The notes under the pieces: model-generated
What the model was told of the DNA's origin: nothing
Seen by the model: only the letters and a program-made list of their open reading frames with translations
The model's database searches: none
Position numbers and translations under genes: made by a program
UHGV virus genome: UHGV-0119342
Direction: 5' to 3' (one strand)
Length of the DNA stretch: 10,976 nt
Source: a virus
Shown here: one piece after another, positions 1-10,064 of the stretch
Position numbering within the stretch: the first letter of the stretch is position 1
How the letters are laid out: the number at the start of each line of letters is the position of its first letter

Positions 1-12
1 AGGAACAAACGC

Positions 13-61
13 TTAATCGCGGTTTACATCAGCGCGGCGTTAATCGGGTGATTTTCATCAG
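13..61. repeat. Imperfect tandem direct repeat upstream of the recombinase gene (ttaatcgcggtttacatcag at 13-32; ttaatcgggtgattttcatcag at 40-61)
   Basis: Two copies read directly, both starting with ttaatcg and ending with catcag, 27 bp apart; aatcgcg recurs at 93-99. Function not established. Confidence 0.4.
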
Positions 62-124
62 ACACGTTTAAATACACCATCTAAAGCGATACAATCGCGC
101 TATTAGTTTTTATGGTGGTAAAGA

Positions 125-1528
125 ATGAAACGTGTAATCAGCTACATCAGATTCAGTTCTGAGCGACAAGCCAAAGGCGACTCACTACGCAGACAGTCTA
201 AGATGGTTAATGACTGGCTTAAGGCTCATCCTGAGTACTACCTTGACCAAGATTTATCCTTCCGTGATTTGGGGGTGAGTGGGTTCACTGGTAAGCACTT
301 GAAAGGTGGCTTAGGTGACTTTTTAACCGCTATCGAGAAAGGGCTTGTTAAAGCTGGTGATACGCTCTTGATAGAATCTCTTGACCGTCTGTCACGTCAA
401 GATGTAGACCAAGCAAGTGAGCTACTCAGAAACATTCTTCGCTCTGGTGTAGATGTGGTCACCTTGTCCGATGGTGAACATTACACACGAGAATCTCTTA
501 AAGACCCGTTAGCTCTGATTAAAAGCATTTTGATAATGCAGCGGTCGCATGAGGAAAGTTTGAGGAAGTCTGAGCGTATACAAGCTGCATGGGATGCAAA
601 GAAAGAAGCTGCTAAAGCCGGTATCAAGATTTCTAGGCGTTGTCCTGCATGGCTTAAGCTTAATGATGACCGTAAAAGCTTCTCTGTGATACCTGAGAAG
701 GTAGAAACTGTGAGGAGATGCTTTCAATTACGGTTAGAGGGTAAGTCTATCTGGGAGATTGTCCGGATTCTTAATGATGAAGGTCACCAGACACTTAACC
801 AGTACAAAGCAGGTAAGTTTGGTCAAACCTCAGTGCAAGACCTTCTGAAAAATCGCTCTGTAATTGGTTACTTCACACCTAAAGGCTGTGAGGAGATAGT
901 TGGTTATTTCCCCCCTATCATCCCTGAGACTGATTTCTACAAAGTCCAGCAACTATCATATTCTCGTTATGGAAGAAAGCCTGCTTCAGATAAACCATTG
1001 AGTGTGAATCTTTTCAAAGGTGTTATCCGTTGTTCTGAATGTGGTCATGCTCTGATTATCACAGGCTTTAGCGATACAAGAAGCGGTATATATCGCTGTC
1101 CTTCTCGAAATGAAAACCGTTGCAATGCCAAAGGGCTGTCACGTAAGCAAACCGATGGTACATTACTTGCCCTGCTATCCCGTATAGACCGATTTGATAG
1201 CGATATGACGAATACCATAGACACACTGAAGCTACACCGTGAACACATCTCAAGCAATATTGAAAAGCTGGTACAGCTATCACTTGAAATTGAAGACTTG
1301 TCCGCTATTACCAGCAAACTAAAACAGTTAAAAGGTGAGCTATCACAGGTTGATGCGGATATCGAGAAGGAGACACAACGCCTTAAATCTATTGATGTGG
1401 GGTGTTTGTCTGATTGTGACTTGACTACAAAGGCGGGAAGGATTGAAGCACAACTGATAATCAAAAGTGCTGTTAAAGAGGTCGTTTTGAATACTGCTAA
1501 ACGTCGATGTAACTTTTCACAACGGTAA
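125..1528 (+). CDS. Large serine recombinase (integrase/resolvase family)
   Basis: 467-aa ORF. N-terminal resolvase-type catalytic region (YIRFSSERQ with candidate catalytic Ser; LIESLDRLSRQ), Cys-rich zinc-ribbon-like segment (CSECGH...YRCPSRNENRC), C-terminal coiled-coil-like stretch. GGTGG about 8 nt upstream of ATG. Confidence 0.85.
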   Translation: MKRVISYIRFSSERQAKGDSLRRQSKMVNDWLKAHPEYYLDQDLSFRDLGVSGFTGKHLKGGLGDFLTAIEKGLVKAGDTLLIESLDRLSRQDVDQASELLRNILRSGVDVVTLSDGEHYTRESLKDPLALIKSILIMQRSHEESLRKSERIQAAWDAKKEAAKAGIKISRRCPAWLKLNDDRKSFSVIPEKVETVRRCFQLRLEGKSIWEIVRILNDEGHQTLNQYKAGKFGQTSVQDLLKNRSVIGYFTPKGCEEIVGYFPPIIPETDFYKVQQLSYSRYGRKPASDKPLSVNLFKGVIRCSECGHALIITGFSDTRSGIYRCPSRNENRCNAKGLSRKQTDGTLLALLSRIDRFDSDMTNTIDTLKLHREHISSNIEKLVQLSLEIEDLSAITSKLKQLKGELSQVDADIEKETQRLKSIDVGCLSDCDLTTKAGRIEAQLIIKSAVKEVVLNTAKRRCNFSQR

Positions 1529-1657: not shown

Positions 1658-2422
1658 TCAGTAGCGCTTGTTAGGATTCACAGAAAACTTCCGTAAAGCA
1701 TTACCCGACTTAAGCACCTTTGAAGCTTGCTCATTAGCTGAGGCTGTGAAGGTGCTCTCACCATTTTTAACGCTAACGCTCTTAGAGCACGTTACACGGG
1801 CTTTTAGCGCTTCATCTGATAACTCACTTGCCGAATAGCTAAAAAGCTCTTTACAGGTCAGCATAGGGCTTCCAAGGCTCGTTGTAGTGTTGCCAGTGTT
1901 CTTTTTACTGGTAGAACCGCCATCATTCGTGGTAGCGACCTTTCCAGTAGCTGCTGAAACATCAGTTTGCCCTACGATTGAACGAAATTCTACACCTTGG
2001 AAGGTCATCTGAATACGAAGACCATTAGCAATGGTATGCTCTTTACTCGCTTTAAACTGAGTAATGATACTATCAGTGATAGATATTCCATCTTTACAAA
2101 CAATAGTGATGATTTGCTTCTGGTCTCGCCATTGTTCAACCGTAGAAATAAAGGTCTCTACAAGTTGCCCCTGTCTGGTTAATAGAACTGAACCCGTCGA
2201 ATCAACCACTACAACACCGCTAATAGAGATGGTCTTAGGTGCTCTCTGAACATTATCAGTGATAGTTTGCCCCGATTGCATAGCCTGAGTTGTCACCATC
2301 ATCGGTGAGTCATAGTCCATCTGTTCAGTAGCTGTTAAGGCAAGAAAAGATTCTACATTATCTCTAAGGTGAAAATAGATACCATCTTTACCTGAGTATC
2401 TAATTTGCTTTGTGTCAAACAT
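1658..2422 (-). CDS. Hypothetical protein, possibly tail-associated (immediately downstream of the tape measure gene)
   Basis: 254-aa ORF, AGGA 9 nt upstream of ATG, Ser/Thr/Gly-rich C-terminal half. Functional guess from position only. Confidence 0.6.
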
Positions 2423-2595: not shown

Positions 2596-4662
2596 TTATT
2601 CCTCTGGGTAAGCGGAGCTAATCAAGGTATCTTCCTGCATACGATTAATATGCGATGTGGTTCTTTCATCAATAACCTTTCCATCAAGTACCGTCTGAGT
2701 TGTGATATTGATTGTCTGAGGCTGAATATTTACTGACGGCTTGATAACCTTTAAATCTTGTGTGAATGTTTCCACTCGACCTTTCAGATTATTTAATGCT
2801 TCAGGTGAAAACTGTGGAACATCTTTTGATTTGCCATGAACCATAGCCCATAAAACAGCAGCTAAAGAGTTCATGTCACCAGTCAATGCTTGGTCTGTGG
2901 GTTCCACCTTTGACCTTACAACTTTGTCAATTGGATTATCTGACTTACTCATCTGACGTTCATAGAACGGTTTAACAATGGAGTTAATCACATCAGTTGC
3001 CATACCGACAATCATTACTTTGGTAATTGCATCAGCTACAGATAATTTTCCTTTACCACCTTCAACACTACCGGAACGTGAATTAATTCTTCCCGCTGCT
3101 GTATTTGCTACATTTCCAAGCATGGAAATAGCCCTAATTAAGTTCCAGATACCACCTACAGCACCAATACCAGACCTTACAGCGACAATACCAGCAAGTC
3201 CCTTTAATGCACTTAACAGGCCATTTGCGATACCATCAGCTACAGCTTTTTGAGTGTCATTTAATTCTCTGTAAGCAAGGGTCACTCTGTCAAAGAATCC
3301 CTGCACTCGGTAGCTAATCGTGGTTAAATCATCAATACCGTTTGACATGCTTTTCATCAGGTCGCCAAAATGTTCACCAAGATTTTTAGATTGACCACCT
3401 AGTGAATTAAGTAAATTAGTCAGTGACCTTGTAAAGTCTGTTAAACCTTCCTGTGAACCGTCGAACATTAAGGCCAGATTATTATTCCATGAATTAGAAA
3501 GGCGGCCTAACTGCGTCTGAGTAGAGTTAATAATCTTTTCCCATCCACCAGCTTTATCAATCATCCTTCCCATTTCAGCGGATACTTTAGGAAGAACATC
3601 TTTAGAAAGAACTTTACCGTTCTTCATAGCTGCATCTAATTGCTCGGTAGTCATCCCAAGGCTTCTGGCAAATAACTGGAAAGCACCTGCCATTCTGTCA
3701 CCTAATTGACCACGTAGCTCTTCAGCCTGAATCTTCCCTTTAGAAGCCATCTGCTCGAAAGCTTTCAGAATCCCGTTAATTTCATCAGTGCTTAAACCCA
3801 TTAGTCGGGATGTACCAATCACATTAGAAAATAAGGATTCTTTCTGGTCTGCATTCATATCACCAGCACCAGCGGAAAACTTAGCAAAGCTACTTAATGT
3901 TTCAATCTGGTCTACACCTGTATTATTAGCAAGATTCTTAACGAAGTCTGTAGCTCGTTTAGCGCCTTCATCGCCTAATACAAATTGTGCCGCTCGTTGT
4001 GATGCTTCTTTTTTCAGACCAATCTCCATAATCTTCCTATAAGCTTCTAAGGCTGTCTGAAAACTATAAATGGCTGTACCTGCTTTGATTGCACTTGTAG
4101 CTAATACATCTAAACCATTTGAAGCATTTTCACTGTGATTGTTTTTGCTGGTGGTCTTATTAAACTTAGAAAGTGTTTCACGTAGATTTTGATTTAACTT
4201 TGCTAACTCACGATTAAAAGCTTCGTTCCCAAGTGTCTTGGATTTACCGCTTAAGCTGTAATACTGGCTTCTAAAATACTTCTCAAGTAGAGGATTAAAG
4301 TCACGAAGCTTGCTCATATTCACGCTATGCGCTGCTGTGATTGCTCTGTTGCCGCTAATTCGTGGTTGCCTTGCTGCTTTAACAGTTTCTTCAACCTGAG
4401 TTTTGAACTTAAAGACCTTCGTAGATTTGGCTCTTTCCTCCAGCTTATTAAAAGTCTGGTTAATCTTCTTTTCCATATTCCCCAAAGAGGCTGTTAAATC
4501 CTTATCCATGCTCTTTGGGTTAACTTTAAATGCTCTATTCAAATTGCGTTCAATTCTTTGTGCTGACTGCAAAGCTGCCTTTTCAACTCTTTGCAGTCCC
4601 TTAATAACGTTTTCATTGAAGCCTAGCTCAACGATAAAACTATCAACTGTGAATTTGCTCAT
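2596..4662 (-). CDS. Phage tail tape measure protein
   Basis: 688-aa ORF. Coiled-coil-like N-terminal region, central segment resembling the conserved tape-measure domain (GKIQAEELRGQLGDRMAGAFQLFARSLGMTTEQLDAAMKNGKV), Gly-rich hydrophobic segments near the C-terminus. AGAGGTG 10 nt upstream of ATG. Confidence 0.8.
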   Translation of the reverse strand: MSKFTVDSFIVELGFNENVIKGLQRVEKAALQSAQRIERNLNRAFKVNPKSMDKDLTASLGNMEKKINQTFNKLEERAKSTKVFKFKTQVEETVKAARQPRISGNRAITAAHSVNMSKLRDFNPLLEKYFRSQYYSLSGKSKTLGNEAFNRELAKLNQNLRETLSKFNKTTSKNNHSENASNGLDVLATSAIKAGTAIYSFQTALEAYRKIMEIGLKKEASQRAAQFVLGDEGAKRATDFVKNLANNTGVDQIETLSSFAKFSAGAGDMNADQKESLFSNVIGTSRLMGLSTDEINGILKAFEQMASKGKIQAEELRGQLGDRMAGAFQLFARSLGMTTEQLDAAMKNGKVLSKDVLPKVSAEMGRMIDKAGGWEKIINSTQTQLGRLSNSWNNNLALMFDGSQEGLTDFTRSLTNLLNSLGGQSKNLGEHFGDLMKSMSNGIDDLTTISYRVQGFFDRVTLAYRELNDTQKAVADGIANGLLSALKGLAGIVAVRSGIGAVGGIWNLIRAISMLGNVANTAAGRINSRSGSVEGGKGKLSVADAITKVMIVGMATDVINSIVKPFYERQMSKSDNPIDKVVRSKVEPTDQALTGDMNSLAAVLWAMVHGKSKDVPQFSPEALNNLKGRVETFTQDLKVIKPSVNIQPQTINITTQTVLDGKVIDERTTSHINRMQEDTLISSAYPEE

Positions 4663-6184: not shown

Positions 6185-6462
6185 CAGCCTTTTAACAGAT
6201 TGGTAACATCAATTTCTATTTACTGTGTTGCCTACCCAGCAACCAACAAATAAGCCAAGCAACGTCCAAGCAATTATTAAGCCCATTAGTGAACCCTCAC
6301 AGAATCCGTAACCAAAATATTGTCGCCGTACAGGATTGTCACAGCACCTTTCAAAAATTGCTCTGGGGAAATACTGTATTTGTTCGTTTGCTCGATAACC
6401 AATCTTTTCATGTCGCTGTCTGCAATTGGTAGCATCATTCGAGGCTCGTTAAACTCCACCGA

Positions 6463-6609
6463 CTAAATAAAGTCAGAGATGTTTTCTGCATTATCAGCCA
6501 TCAGCTTTAGTAATTTATCAAAATTAATTGCGATACCTGCATCACTGAAAGCCTGAATCATCAGAGCGGTGTCGTTATCAACGAAAATCTGTAATTCGTA
6601 ATTGCTCAT
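6463..6609 (-). CDS. Small acidic hypothetical protein (48 aa, not in the supplied ORF track)
   Basis: Hand translation MSNYELQIFVDNDTALMIQAFSDAGIAINFDKLLKLMADNAENISDFI; AAGGAG 9 nt upstream of ATG. Confidence 0.4.
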   Translation of the reverse strand: MSNYELQIFVDNDTALMIQAFSDAGIAINFDKLLKLMADNAENISDFI

Positions 6610-6764: not shown

Positions 6765-7052
6765 CTAATTTCTCTTAAAGTCTCGGACTTGCATAAGATT
6801 TTTTGGTCTGGTATCGGCTCTGTTACCATTTCGATGGATAATTTGCTTATTGGATTGATAGCCATGATAAAGGAACCAGACAACATATTTCACGTAGAAA
6901 GTATATCGGCCTATATTAAATGTTTTGTTGCCGTAGTCGTCGGTATTTATCGTGACTGACTCTCCATCAGACCAGCACAGGGAATCACTGGATTCATCAT
7001 AGATAAGGTGTTCTGTAAAATATCGTCTAACATCTTCATGCCAAGGTTTCAT
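6765..7052 (-). CDS. Truncated HNH-like protein, paralogue of the N-terminal part of the 9540-10064 endonuclease
   Basis: 95-aa ORF, GAGGAGG 4 nt upstream of ATG. Shares KPWHEDVRRY with KAWPEEVIRY and VVWFLYHG...IIHRNGNRADTRPKNL with VIFYLYHG...IDHIDGDPLNNAISNL, but ends before the final HNH Asn and has no AP2 domain. Confidence 0.65.
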   Translation of the reverse strand: MKPWHEDVRRYFTEHLIYDESSDSLCWSDGESVTINTDDYGNKTFNIGRYTFYVKYVVWFLYHGYQSNKQIIHRNGNRADTRPKNLMQVRDFKRN

Positions 7053-7542: not shown

Positions 7543-8100
7543 TTAAAATTCCTCTGTAACTAAATACGGGTCAAACTCAAAGTCTGGTTGCTCGTTTTCC
7601 ATTGGCTCAATATTTCCAACGGCAATATGATGCTCAACAACACCAATTAACTTTGCGCACATTACAGCAAGCAATGCACAATATTTATCGCTTGGTAATT
7701 CGTAGCTAAGTCTGGTTGCTTGTCGCTGAAGATGATTTGTCACGGTGGCTGAGTTAATTTCATCAAGGTTCTTTAGGAGATAAAATAGCTTCTTGTTGTA
7801 TTTCGGGTGACCTTCACCTCTACAGAATCCAATGAAAATATCATCAAGCTTACTTGGTAATTGTTCGTAGCTGTCAAAGTTAGCCAGATAATTTTTGATG
7901 CTGTTCTTTGTTGTTTTGCGTACTGACATATAACGACTCCTCGGTGTAATTGCCCGAATTACTTCGTCAATGCCTTTGCGCTCTGCTCTGGTGAACTTGG
8001 GTACTTCGTGACTGGTGGGGGAGTTTGTGTAAGCGTAGGAGTTGTGCTTGTTGCGTTCTCTTGATGCCTGAAGCATCGCTCTAAATTCTCTGTCGTTCAT
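7543..8100 (-). CDS. Hypothetical protein, first gene of the leftward operon
   Basis: 185-aa ORF, GAGGG 11 nt upstream of ATG; stop codon directly abuts the next start (TAAATG). Acidic/aromatic C-terminal tail (DFEFDPYLVTEEF). No recognisable domain. Confidence 0.6.
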   Translation of the reverse strand: MNDREFRAMLQASRERNKHNSYAYTNSPTSHEVPKFTRAERKGIDEVIRAITPRSRYMSVRKTTKNSIKNYLANFDSYEQLPSKLDDIFIGFCRGEGHPKYNKKLFYLLKNLDEINSATVTNHLQRQATRLSYELPSDKYCALLAVMCAKLIGVVEHHIAVGNIEPMENEQPDFEFDPYLVTEEF

Positions 8101-8151
8101 TCATGTTCTGACCCTCATAAGATGTTATTATTCTGTTAACTTATATATACA

Positions 8152-8180
8152 ATCTTAGCAGTTTCAAAGACTAATGTCAA
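8152..8180 (-). promoter_or_regulatory. Candidate sigma70-type promoter for the leftward operon
   Basis: Minus-strand -35 TTGACA (8175-8180), 17-bp spacer, -10 TAAGAT (8152-8157); back-to-back with the plus-strand promoter. Confidence 0.3.
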
Positions 8181-8187
8181 GCATTTT

Positions 8188-8217
8188 TTAACATTTCATT
8201 AACATCTGTGGTATAAT
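8188..8217 (+). promoter_or_regulatory. Candidate strong sigma70-type promoter with extended -10
   Basis: -35 TTAACA (8188-8193), 18-bp spacer, TGg + TATAAT (8209-8217); points toward the small ORF at 8348. Confidence 0.5.
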
Positions 8218-8347
8218 GGTTTTATGAGAGAGGGAAAATATAAAGGCGTGGCTATGAGGTTTATTCGATAGGGGTTGGTACAAGCCCAACTAACCGAATC
8301 AACTATGTATTTGGTCACATGGTATTGCATTGCACACAGGAAATTTA

Positions 8348-8524
8348 ATGGTAAATCTCCCTCCTGAGCTGGGGTCACCTGATGTATGGGCTGGTGGAGG
8401 TGTTGGGCTGATTGCAGGCCTGCTACTTCGCTATGTCCTCGTCAGAGTGCTTGTTGTCTTTAAACTGTTCGGTCGTACATGGACGCTTGACCTTAAGGAT
8501 AATGACCACACAGACCCCCGTTAA
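8348..8524 (+). CDS. Small single-pass membrane protein (58 aa from the ATG; the ORF track begins at a TTG at 8330)
   Basis: AGGA 6 nt upstream of the ATG at 8348; hydrophobic segment WAGGGVGLIAGLLLRYVLVRVLVV; locally GC-richer than its surroundings. Confidence 0.45.
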   Translation: MVNLPPELGSPDVWAGGGVGLIAGLLLRYVLVRVLVVFKLFGRTWTLDLKDNDHTDPR

Positions 8525-8538
8525 ACTCCCTCCAAAAC

Positions 8539-8570
8539 CCCCTGTACGAGATAGTATAGGGGTGTCTTTA
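8539..8570 (+). terminator. Candidate terminator after the small membrane-protein ORF
   Basis: Imperfect 8-bp stem cccctgta / tatagggg (one mismatch), 8-nt loop, followed by tgtcttta. Confidence 0.3.
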
Positions 8571-9453
8571 GCATTTTGTGCTATCTATTAAAAAATAGCT
8601 TGACAGAACAGGAAAGCTGTATCTATCAAGTATTCACCTCTCTGACAGTAATTTCTAAAAGTTCTTATTTTTCAATAAGTTGTAATTAGCCAATATATAA
8701 GGCTGTCCAGTACCTTCACAGAAAAACTTCAGAAGCCTTCTTAATCAATCCACTAAGCGAGAGAGAGCGATAACCCCAGAGAGGGAAGCTCCCTTCTTAA
8801 AAACCTTCTTGACAATCTTTACAGGCCTTGTTCAAGGTAATCGCAATAGTTTTTCTTCCCTCGGTTTCCCGTGTTCCTCGGTTTGCCTATTGAGGTTTGA
8901 AAGACCTCTGTAACTTCCCTCTTAGACAGGGAAGAATAATATTGGTGACACAAGCGAAGCGCCCCTCTAAAAAGATTTTTTAGCTATTTTGTTTAAAAGC
9001 ACATCAAACGATACATTTTATTGATTTAGGTCAAAGACAAAAGCATTGACAAAATGGTAAGATTGTTCACATGACCTTACTTAACAGATTCTTAAGAGCT
9101 TTGAAGCGGCCTATTTAACAAGGTCACTACCTCTGGTCTTATCGTTCCCTCTCTTCTTGGTAGTTCTGTTAAGTATCTTTTCAGGTATCTCTTACAGTCA
9201 CTGTTAAGATGATACTCTCCCTTCGGGTTATATCGTTACTTTCTCTCCCGTTAAACACTCCTTCCTAACTATCTACATAATCACTTCTAAGAATCTTACA
9301 AGGTAATATCCAGACCTCTTATAGCTGACCTGATACAGAAACATTACAGGCATACTCTCTAGGTTCTGTGTAGTTCCCTTGGTGGGAATAGATGCTCCTA
9401 CAATAAGAGCATCATTAATCTATATAGTCCTCTTCCGAGAACTTAATAGTTTT

Positions 9454-9481
9454 TTGATGTACATCAATCATTATCTAAAAT
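9454..9481 (+). promoter_or_regulatory. Candidate promoter for the HNH endonuclease gene
   Basis: -35 TTGATG (9454-9459), 16-bp spacer, -10 TAAAAT (9476-9481). Confidence 0.3.
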
Positions 9482-9539
9482 ATGATATGAAGTTTCTTGG
9501 TAGTATTACATCAACAAGTTAATTGAAATAAGGAATATT

Positions 9540-10064
9540 ATGGTGACTAGGTATACCAAGGCATGGCCTGAAGAAGTTATAAGATACATCAATGAAAATA
9601 TTACAGCAGATTTTGAATCTGGAACATTATTTAGAAATGGTGTAAAAATCGAGGGTTCACTTGTAAATCCTAAACCAAGACAATATCTGGCTTTTGGTTG
9701 TCGGATTAATGGTAAGTTCAGAATACTTAAGGTGCATCAGGTTATTTTCTATCTATATCATGGTAAACAAGCTAAACTATGGATTGACCATATAGATGGT
9801 GACCCGCTAAATAATGCTATTAGCAATCTTCGCGAGGTTACCAAAGAGCAGAATCAGGCAAACATGATACCCAGAAAGAAAACAAAATCAGGTTACAAGG
9901 GAGTACACCCAAGAGTGGATAACAAGGGGTTCTGGGCTACAATACGCTGTAATGGAAAATCTCATTATCTGGGTCAGTTTAATACAGCAGAAGAAGCTGC
10001 AAAAGCCTATGATGCTGCATCACTGGAATTGCATGGTAAATATGGACACAGGAATTTTAGCTGA
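9540..10064 (+). CDS. Free-standing homing endonuclease, NUMOD4-like N-terminus + HNH nuclease + AP2 DNA-binding domain
   Basis: 174-aa ORF, AAGGA 5 nt upstream of ATG. HNH motif VHQVIFYLYHG...IDHIDGDPLNNAISNLREVTKEQNQAN; AP2-like C-terminus YKGVHPRVDNKGFWATIRCNGKSHYLGQFNTAEEAAKAYDAAS. Confidence 0.85.
   Translation: MVTRYTKAWPEEVIRYINENITADFESGTLFRNGVKIEGSLVNPKPRQYLAFGCRINGKFRILKVHQVIFYLYHGKQAKLWIDHIDGDPLNNAISNLREVTKEQNQANMIPRKKTKSGYKGVHPRVDNKGFWATIRCNGKSHYLGQFNTAEEAAKAYDAASLELHGKYGHRNFS

Follow-up and report, generated by a model that had tools for sequence, protein, structure and literature searches.

The window analysed here, a stretch of 10,976 nt from UHGV virus genome UHGV-0119342, opens in bacterial coding DNA: its first bases are the end of a 5' fragment of yecE, a host gene for a DUF72 protein, and they are followed by a short leader and a large serine recombinase gene. 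The features of this left end, to which we refer throughout, are as follows.

1-55, plus strand: end of the yecE 5' fragment (host DNA, DUF72 protein), codons 142-160 of 272
30-80: attL from junction mapping, with a B half-site at about 30-53, TT at 54-55 and a P' half-site at 56-80
54-55: central (crossover) dinucleotide TT, the sole identity of attB and window-type attP at the exchange point
56-80, plus strand: P' half-site of the element, from arm matching and a free attP contig
67-95, plus strand: promoter-like TTTAAA (67-72), 17 nt, TACAAT (90-95), with 9 of 12 consensus matches
114-118, plus strand: Shine-Dalgarno-like GGTGG, 6 nt before the ATG at 125
125-1528, plus strand: large serine recombinase gene, recognised by its Pfam domains

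The yecE portion belongs to a core gene, and bases 1-55 recur at 100% identity in 5416 of 5426 complete E. coli genomes. Comparison with empty yecE alleles locates the junction to the base. At sites without the element, identity to the window always ends at base 55 among the complete E. coli genomes; at occupied sites it runs on through base 124, as found in 221 of the complete E. coli genomes searched, and about 4-5% of complete E. coli genomes carry a member of the element family. Everything from base 56 onward is element DNA, so that yecE is split at codon 160; the interrupted frame continues into the element and reaches a TAA stop at 69-71. The empty site of strain BL21 (L001 1501-1555) reads ...GGCGTTAATCGGGTGATTTT-AGACAGCCGCCCGG..., and the nearest public copy of the element, carried by strain WP9-S17-ESBL-11 with 99.945% identity to the entire window of 10,976 nt, provides both ends of the interruption. 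There, the first part of yecE ends ...GGGTGATTTT / CATCAGACACG, the same as in the window, and the second part resumes ...GCTAATCTT / AGACAGCCGCC after 11,880 bp of element. The comparison of empty with occupied alleles further establishes that the insertion is precise and conservative, with a target duplication consisting of the core only. Its position and orientation within yecE are identical in 17 distinct copies, one of which comes from Citrobacter freundii. Scans of the entire window against Rfam (at gathering thresholds) and for tRNAs returned no match, so that the insertion target is neither a tRNA nor a tmRNA.

Base composition steps at the same boundary, falling from 47% GC in 1-55 to 36% in 56-124, against 39% for the whole window. 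The original prediction had described all of this upstream DNA as GC-richer than the element body; with these values, the description is accurate for the first 55 bases and is limited to them, as the following 69 bases lie below the window average. The same prediction had proposed the stretch as a plausible attachment site or element/host junction, and this location is borne out by the boundary at 55/56, the crossover at 54-55 and the attL at about 30-80. Its accompanying suspicion that the feature might be truncated by the start of the window can be set aside, as the 53 bp of host DNA left of the core exceed what a B half-site requires.

Reading the empty site and both junctions directly gives attB as GATT-TT-AGACAG, attL as GATT-TT-CATCAG and attR as AATC-TT-AGACAG. 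The core is thus the 2-bp, non-palindromic TT, with mismatches on either side of it in window-type sites. Because the exchange is confined to TT and a large serine recombinase gene lies adjacent, we place attL at roughly 30-80; its outer limits are probable positions derived from the half-sites of 20-25 bp used by characterised serine integrases (PMC3783163). Within yecE, attB is GGGTGATT-TT-AGACAGCC, while attP, rebuilt by joining the element ends, is ...GGTGTATTTAGACCTTGCTAATC-TT-CATCAGACACGTTTAAATACACC.... This attP is a pseudo-palindrome, whose inverted arms agree around TT at 18 of 30 positions in two element types and at 16 of 30 in a third. Its distal P' motif, ACACGTTTAAATACAC (62-77), is an inverted copy of the P-arm sequence GTGTATTTAGAC, which lies at the element's other end, about 0.95 kb past the end of the window (L002 31911-31933). 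The distal P' motif is invariant in nine copies that were found independently of it, including one from Citrobacter. When the distal (zinc-ribbon) motif is placed on attB at an offset of +5, it matches at 4 of 9 positions in B and 1 of 9 in B', a level that does not exceed that at other offsets.

We also surveyed several datasets for an unoccupied attP. In complete E. coli genomes, the joined attP query found no place covering at least 80% of its length (84 genomes with a match), and among the matches listed, the E. coli alignments begin at the core. The same joined attP had no match in plasmids, and IMG/VR held integrated copies only, with no free attP. A scan of species-representative genomes with the 18-nt P' motif gave four matches, all in unrelated MAGs; it is uninformative, since about 17 matches are expected by chance. 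A gapped pattern for the intact attP, however, recovered one metagenome contig of 11,473 bp (ERZ1090866 NODE-760, hereafter L031). Its attP, at 2940-2981, reads ...AGTGTATTTAGACCTTGATGATT-TT-TATTAGACACGTTTAAATACAC... and is an exact match to the attP that had been predicted beforehand from the attL and attR of the copy in strain PT109 (L005). The integrase gene lies directly to the right of this site, and the gene order is that of the element family. In an integrated Citrobacter copy, the two contig ends fall next to each other, at 18232 and 18237; the contig is therefore a complete sister element of about 11.4 kb, either excised or circularly permuted. Nextera adapter makes up the final 43 bases, so the contig break is probably an assembly artefact. 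Within the first 80 nt of the contig, the palindrome-like sequence GTGACATTTTGTCAC occurs twice.

Taken together, we interpret bases 1-124, with a probability of about 0.9, as the attL, or left host/element junction, of an integrative element of about 11.9 kb, created inside yecE by a serine integrase, together with the short leader of the integrase gene. In the mechanism we propose, whose chemistry is borrowed from what is known of the enzyme family, a circular copy of the element would carry attP, with imperfectly inverted arms P and P' of about 25 bp flanking TT. One dimer of the large serine recombinase would bind attP and another the attB inside yecE; all four strands would be cut at TT with a 2-nt stagger, and half of the complex would rotate by 180 degrees before the ends rejoin. 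The products would be B-TT-P', corresponding to about 30-80 of the window, and P-TT-B', about 0.95 kb beyond the window end. Serine integrases recombine attP with attB on their own, and the reaction between attL and attR needs a directionality factor. By extension from the family, excision of this element would likewise call for a separate factor; none was identified.

The recombinase encoded at 125-1528 contains the Resolvase (PF00239, E 2e-21), Recombinase (PF07508, E 3e-14) and Zn_ribbon_recom (PF13408, E 1e-7) domains, all scoring above the curated cut-offs. Its N-terminus starts MKRVISYIRFSSERQ and includes a YIRFSSERQ motif with catalytic-serine context, in which R9 and S11 do not vary across the family alignment. 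Homologues closer than any in sequenced phages, named only "recombinase family protein", are found in E. coli, E. albertii, Citrobacter freundii and Pluralibacter. The element's gene order recurs in a sister family, which resides in mdtG rather than in yecE (L008 19958-31175, L016 and L014; E. coli and Pluralibacter). The recombinase gene of these mdtG relatives is 79% identical over its first third and 63-67% identical at the protein level, and their attachment-site arms carry a related motif, GTGTATTTAGG. The core inferred at the mdtG sites is a palindromic AT around which the arm motifs are asymmetric, an arrangement that is odd for a serine integrase. As to the identity of the element itself, the Sakai island SpLE2 was considered and rejected, as SpLE2 lies at sbcB.

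The leader between the crossover and the recombinase gene is unevenly conserved. Among the 17 distinct copies, 32 of 35 columns are invariant in 62-96 and 8 of 28 in 97-124, compared with 119 of 176 in the first 176 nt of the recombinase gene. The loci L018-L026 and L031 were found by exact match to 60-77, so that the invariance there is partly by construction; the invariance is seen equally in nine loci recovered through BLAST or protein identity, and positions 78-96 lie outside the search pattern. Within this conserved block, TTTAAA-17-TACAAT is proposed as a candidate integrase promoter, with the reservation that about one site with 9 of 12 matches is expected by chance in 400 bp. Its -35 element would lie inside the P' half-site, an overlap that would allow autorepression: integrase bound at attL or attP would repress its own gene. 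The Shine-Dalgarno-like position is occupied by GGTGG or TGAGG in sister copies; neither a potential stem at 86-98 nor an inverted repeat at 75-85/107-117 is conserved among them.

The window differs from its nearest public copy at two places only. One, a 5-bp deletion (GTAAA, within GTAAAGTAA), sets the window apart from every public copy and can be placed anywhere in 1509-1513. The deletion frameshifts the integrase at residue 462 and yields a protein of 467 aa, against 507 aa in all relatives, with loss of the C-terminal 45 aa that are conserved across the family. The other, a G-to-A change at 6465, is the sole substitution and converts a Gln codon to a stop in a 107-aa ORF (6286-6609, minus strand). 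One difference being a frameshift and the other a nonsense codon, both are inactivating. As its integrase is frameshifted and lacks the conserved 45-aa tail, the window's copy of the element may be locked in place, unable to move.

Two alternatives concern what made the junction and whether it still functions. As yecE is a known integration gene of Stx phages, which use a 21-bp att site (PMC8112680), and as Stx-phage records match window 1-55, the junction could be ascribed to a tyrosine integrase of the Stx-phage type, with the serine recombinase a mere passenger. We regard this as extremely unlikely. The Stx-phage 21-bp core, TTAACTGCGTGGAGGGCAACA, lies at yecE codon 29, 372 bp upstream of the TT crossover and outside the window, which also led us to reject an att site shared with these phages; their records match bases 1-55 simply because they include the downstream yecE flank. 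Furthermore, the element encodes no tyrosine recombinase, and both sites are independently occupied in a single yecE of Citrobacter (L015). The exchange region, finally, is 2 bp long, whereas tyrosine integrases typically have 6-8 bp or more of core identity. A different objection accepts a serine integrase as the author of the site and regards 1-124 as no more than a fossil: what remains of a decayed prophage fixed in yecE, with an att site and a recombinase that have ceased to function. We consider this a real prospect, albeit at distinctly less than even odds. Both differences of the window are inactivating, several genomes contain IS-disrupted copies, and no capsid, terminase or replication gene was recognised in the element; yet the 11-12-kb gene order has been kept across two target genes and no fewer than three genera, with identities of 79-99%, most family copies retain an intact 507-aa integrase, and a free attP form exists. 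The objection, moreover, bears on the activity of one copy and not on the identity of the site. Judging from these sequence comparisons, the element family as a whole is mobile.

The remaining alternative arises from two look-alike segments that the original prediction had reported as tandem imperfect repeats, with a third partial copy:

13-32: TTAATCGCGGTTTACATCAG, first reported copy, yecE coding DNA outside the likely attB half-site
40-61: TTAATCGGGTGATTTTCATCAG, second reported copy, with yecE B arm and core at 40-55 and the start of the P' arm (CATCAG) at 56-61

Their letters and coordinates are as reported, including the spacing of 27 and the AATCGCG at 93-99, and the two segments share 18 identities with a 2-nt gap at a start-to-start spacing of 27. 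Were the 21-bp units and the third partial copy a true binding array for the recombinase or a regulator, whether arm-type sites or operators, their position directly upstream of the recombinase gene would be apt, and the best off-diagonal score in a Smith-Waterman self-comparison of 1-124, 22 against 14.3 +/- 2.5 for dinucleotide shuffles, is reached by only 1.6% of such shuffles. The same score is attained, however, by 6% of 174 natural 124-nt windows of the same sequence, so the self-similarity of 1-124 is only marginally unusual, and it falls to 16, within the background of 14-15 +/- 3, in the empty yecE allele and in a sister attL with TATTAG. Tandem Repeats Finder, run on 1-600, finds no array in 1-124, and a repeat search of 1-124 finds only a 10-nt pair at 90% identity. 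The first copy and the first 16 bases of the second are yecE DNA present in about 5200 element-free genomes, and the element-derived parts are not kept in sister elements at the same site. The hexamer at 56-61 that starts P' is TATTAG in 13 of the 17 distinct copies and GGACAG in the Citrobacter copy, with the same junction throughout; the second copy accordingly ends other than in CATCAG in 14 of 17, and AATCGCG, claimed as a third partial repeat, reads AATCTAG in all distinct copies but the window type (the window and L002, which is of this type, are identical over the compared stretch). Serine integrases, in addition, use no arm-type sites (PMC3783163). We therefore find a binding array very improbable, and of the regulatory role once envisaged for the repeats, an operator is plausible only for 62-96. 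About 0.5 recurrences of a 7-mer are expected by chance in 124 bases and one is present; in the yecE frame, each TTAATCG heptamer specifies x-Asn-Arg (LNRG and VNRV). The resemblance between the two copies is a chance by-product of these matching in-frame Asn-Arg codon pairs and of CATCAG resembling a yecE hexamer 29 bp upstream.

With the serine-integrase attL as the preferred reading, we turned to the element that it delimits. Its genes run in the order integrase, Dit-like, tape-measure, small unknown ORFs, HNH, an ORF-poor stretch and HNH+AP2, and this order is kept in copies at 86-94% identity. The components downstream of the integrase are:

1658-2422, minus strand: Dit-like gene
2596-4662, minus strand: tape-measure gene
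6765-7052, minus strand: HNH_3 gene
8100-9540: ORF-poor stretch of about 1.4 kb, with no ORF longer than 64 aa, between divergent gene blocks
9540-10064, plus strand: HNH_3 + AP2 gene

Virulent Felix O1-like (Ounavirinae) myoviruses encode counterparts of both tail proteins: identity is about 70% for the Dit-like (baseplate-hub) protein and, compared with the phages' tape-measure proteins across the full length, about 30% for the tape-measure protein; at the nucleotide level, the Dit-like/tape-measure region shares patches of 73-78% identity with them. In these phages the gene for the Dit-like counterpart is the downstream neighbour of the tape-measure gene, and phage phiSUSP1 has the two side by side in the order seen in the element. 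The HNH+AP2 protein shows about 41-43% identity, over partial length, to two homing endonucleases of phiSUSP1, and beyond the tail gene pair and this homing-endonuclease similarity, the element and phiSUSP1 have nothing else in common. Felix O1-like phages are rich in homing endonucleases of the kind that the two HNH_3 genes represent. In the ORF-poor stretch at 8100-9540, which might serve as an origin or have a regulatory function, Rfam gave no match and the repeats are weak and scattered. PADLOC returned no defence-system match in the element except a homing-endonuclease model, and our literature search, covering yecE serine recombinases and satellites with tape-measure genes, found no description of such an element. 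On such circumstantial grounds as these tail-gene affinities and the free attP form, one could suppose that attL at about 30-80 would be the excision substrate of an undescribed phage-parasitic or anti-phage island of the Enterobacteriaceae that targets Felix O1-like (Ounavirinae) myoviruses, a tentative proposal that we rate as rather unlikely. On the analogy of the Vibrio cholerae PLE, an infecting phage might then supply the directionality factor that turns attL and attR into attP and an intact yecE.

The mapped junction defines a native E. coli attB/attP pair, with core TT and about 50 bp each, for an uncharacterised integrase clade. Such att pairs are raw material for integrase-based genome engineering, and this clade has a sister that targets mdtG. 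The junction also makes yecE a gene with two independent integration sites for two enzyme classes, which matters for Stx typing PCRs because an occupied yecE does not necessarily contain an Stx phage. At one Citrobacter freundii locus (L015 9500-10000), a tyrosine-integrase prophage sits at the Stx-type site and a serine-recombinase element at the codon-160 site; the crossover Leu codon there is CTG instead of TTA, so the core at that locus would be CT, not TT. More broadly, the junction anchors a family of elements that occurs in E. coli, Citrobacter, E. albertii and Pluralibacter and in whose life virulent Felix O1-like phages may play a part.

Set against known systems, the junction is a textbook serine-integrase att site, while the element and its integrase clade are uncharacterised. 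The recombinase has the same three-domain organisation as those of A118/LI (at comK), SPbeta (SprA, at spsM), phiC31 and Bxb1. The likeness to the A118/LI type extends to a pseudo-palindromic attP of about 50 bp whose conserved distal motif is some 14-23 bp away from its centre, a 2-bp non-palindromic core, precise insertion disrupting a coding gene, and an int gene beside attP (PMC3783163, PMC5499854). The resemblance to A118 at the sequence level is nevertheless very weak and restricted to the C-terminal domains, which align to the A118/LI integrase structure 4KIS with an E of about 1e-6, and the yecE-element recombinase has a family-specific 45-aa C-terminal tail that sets it apart from the A118 group. 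Unlike A118, SPbeta, phiC31 and Bxb1, this system has a gamma-proteobacterial host, and its cargo is a 12-kb element, not a full phage. In LI integrase, the distal motif of attB lies about 5 bp nearer the centre than in attP (PMC3783163), an inward shift that could not be recognised in the yecE attB.

Among sequenced phages, the nearest recombinases are the YbcK-like proteins of lambdoid coliphages and the DLP12 prophage, with 36% identity over 97% of the length. These are not located beside the att sites of their phages, their context is unrelated to that of the element, and their function is, to our knowledge, uncharacterised. The element is reminiscent of the Vibrio cholerae PLE in that each is a small island in the chromosome and owes its movement to a large serine recombinase. 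The host of PLE parasitism is a virulent myovirus, and virulent myoviruses of the Felix O1-like type have homologues, in syntenic arrangement, of the element's two tail genes, although no replication or packaging function was recognised in the element; we know of no PLE that carries a tape-measure gene. Finally, the Stx-phage site in yecE shares the target gene with this attL but differs from it in position (codon 29 versus codon 160), in enzyme class (tyrosine versus serine) and in the length of the core (21 bp versus 2 bp).
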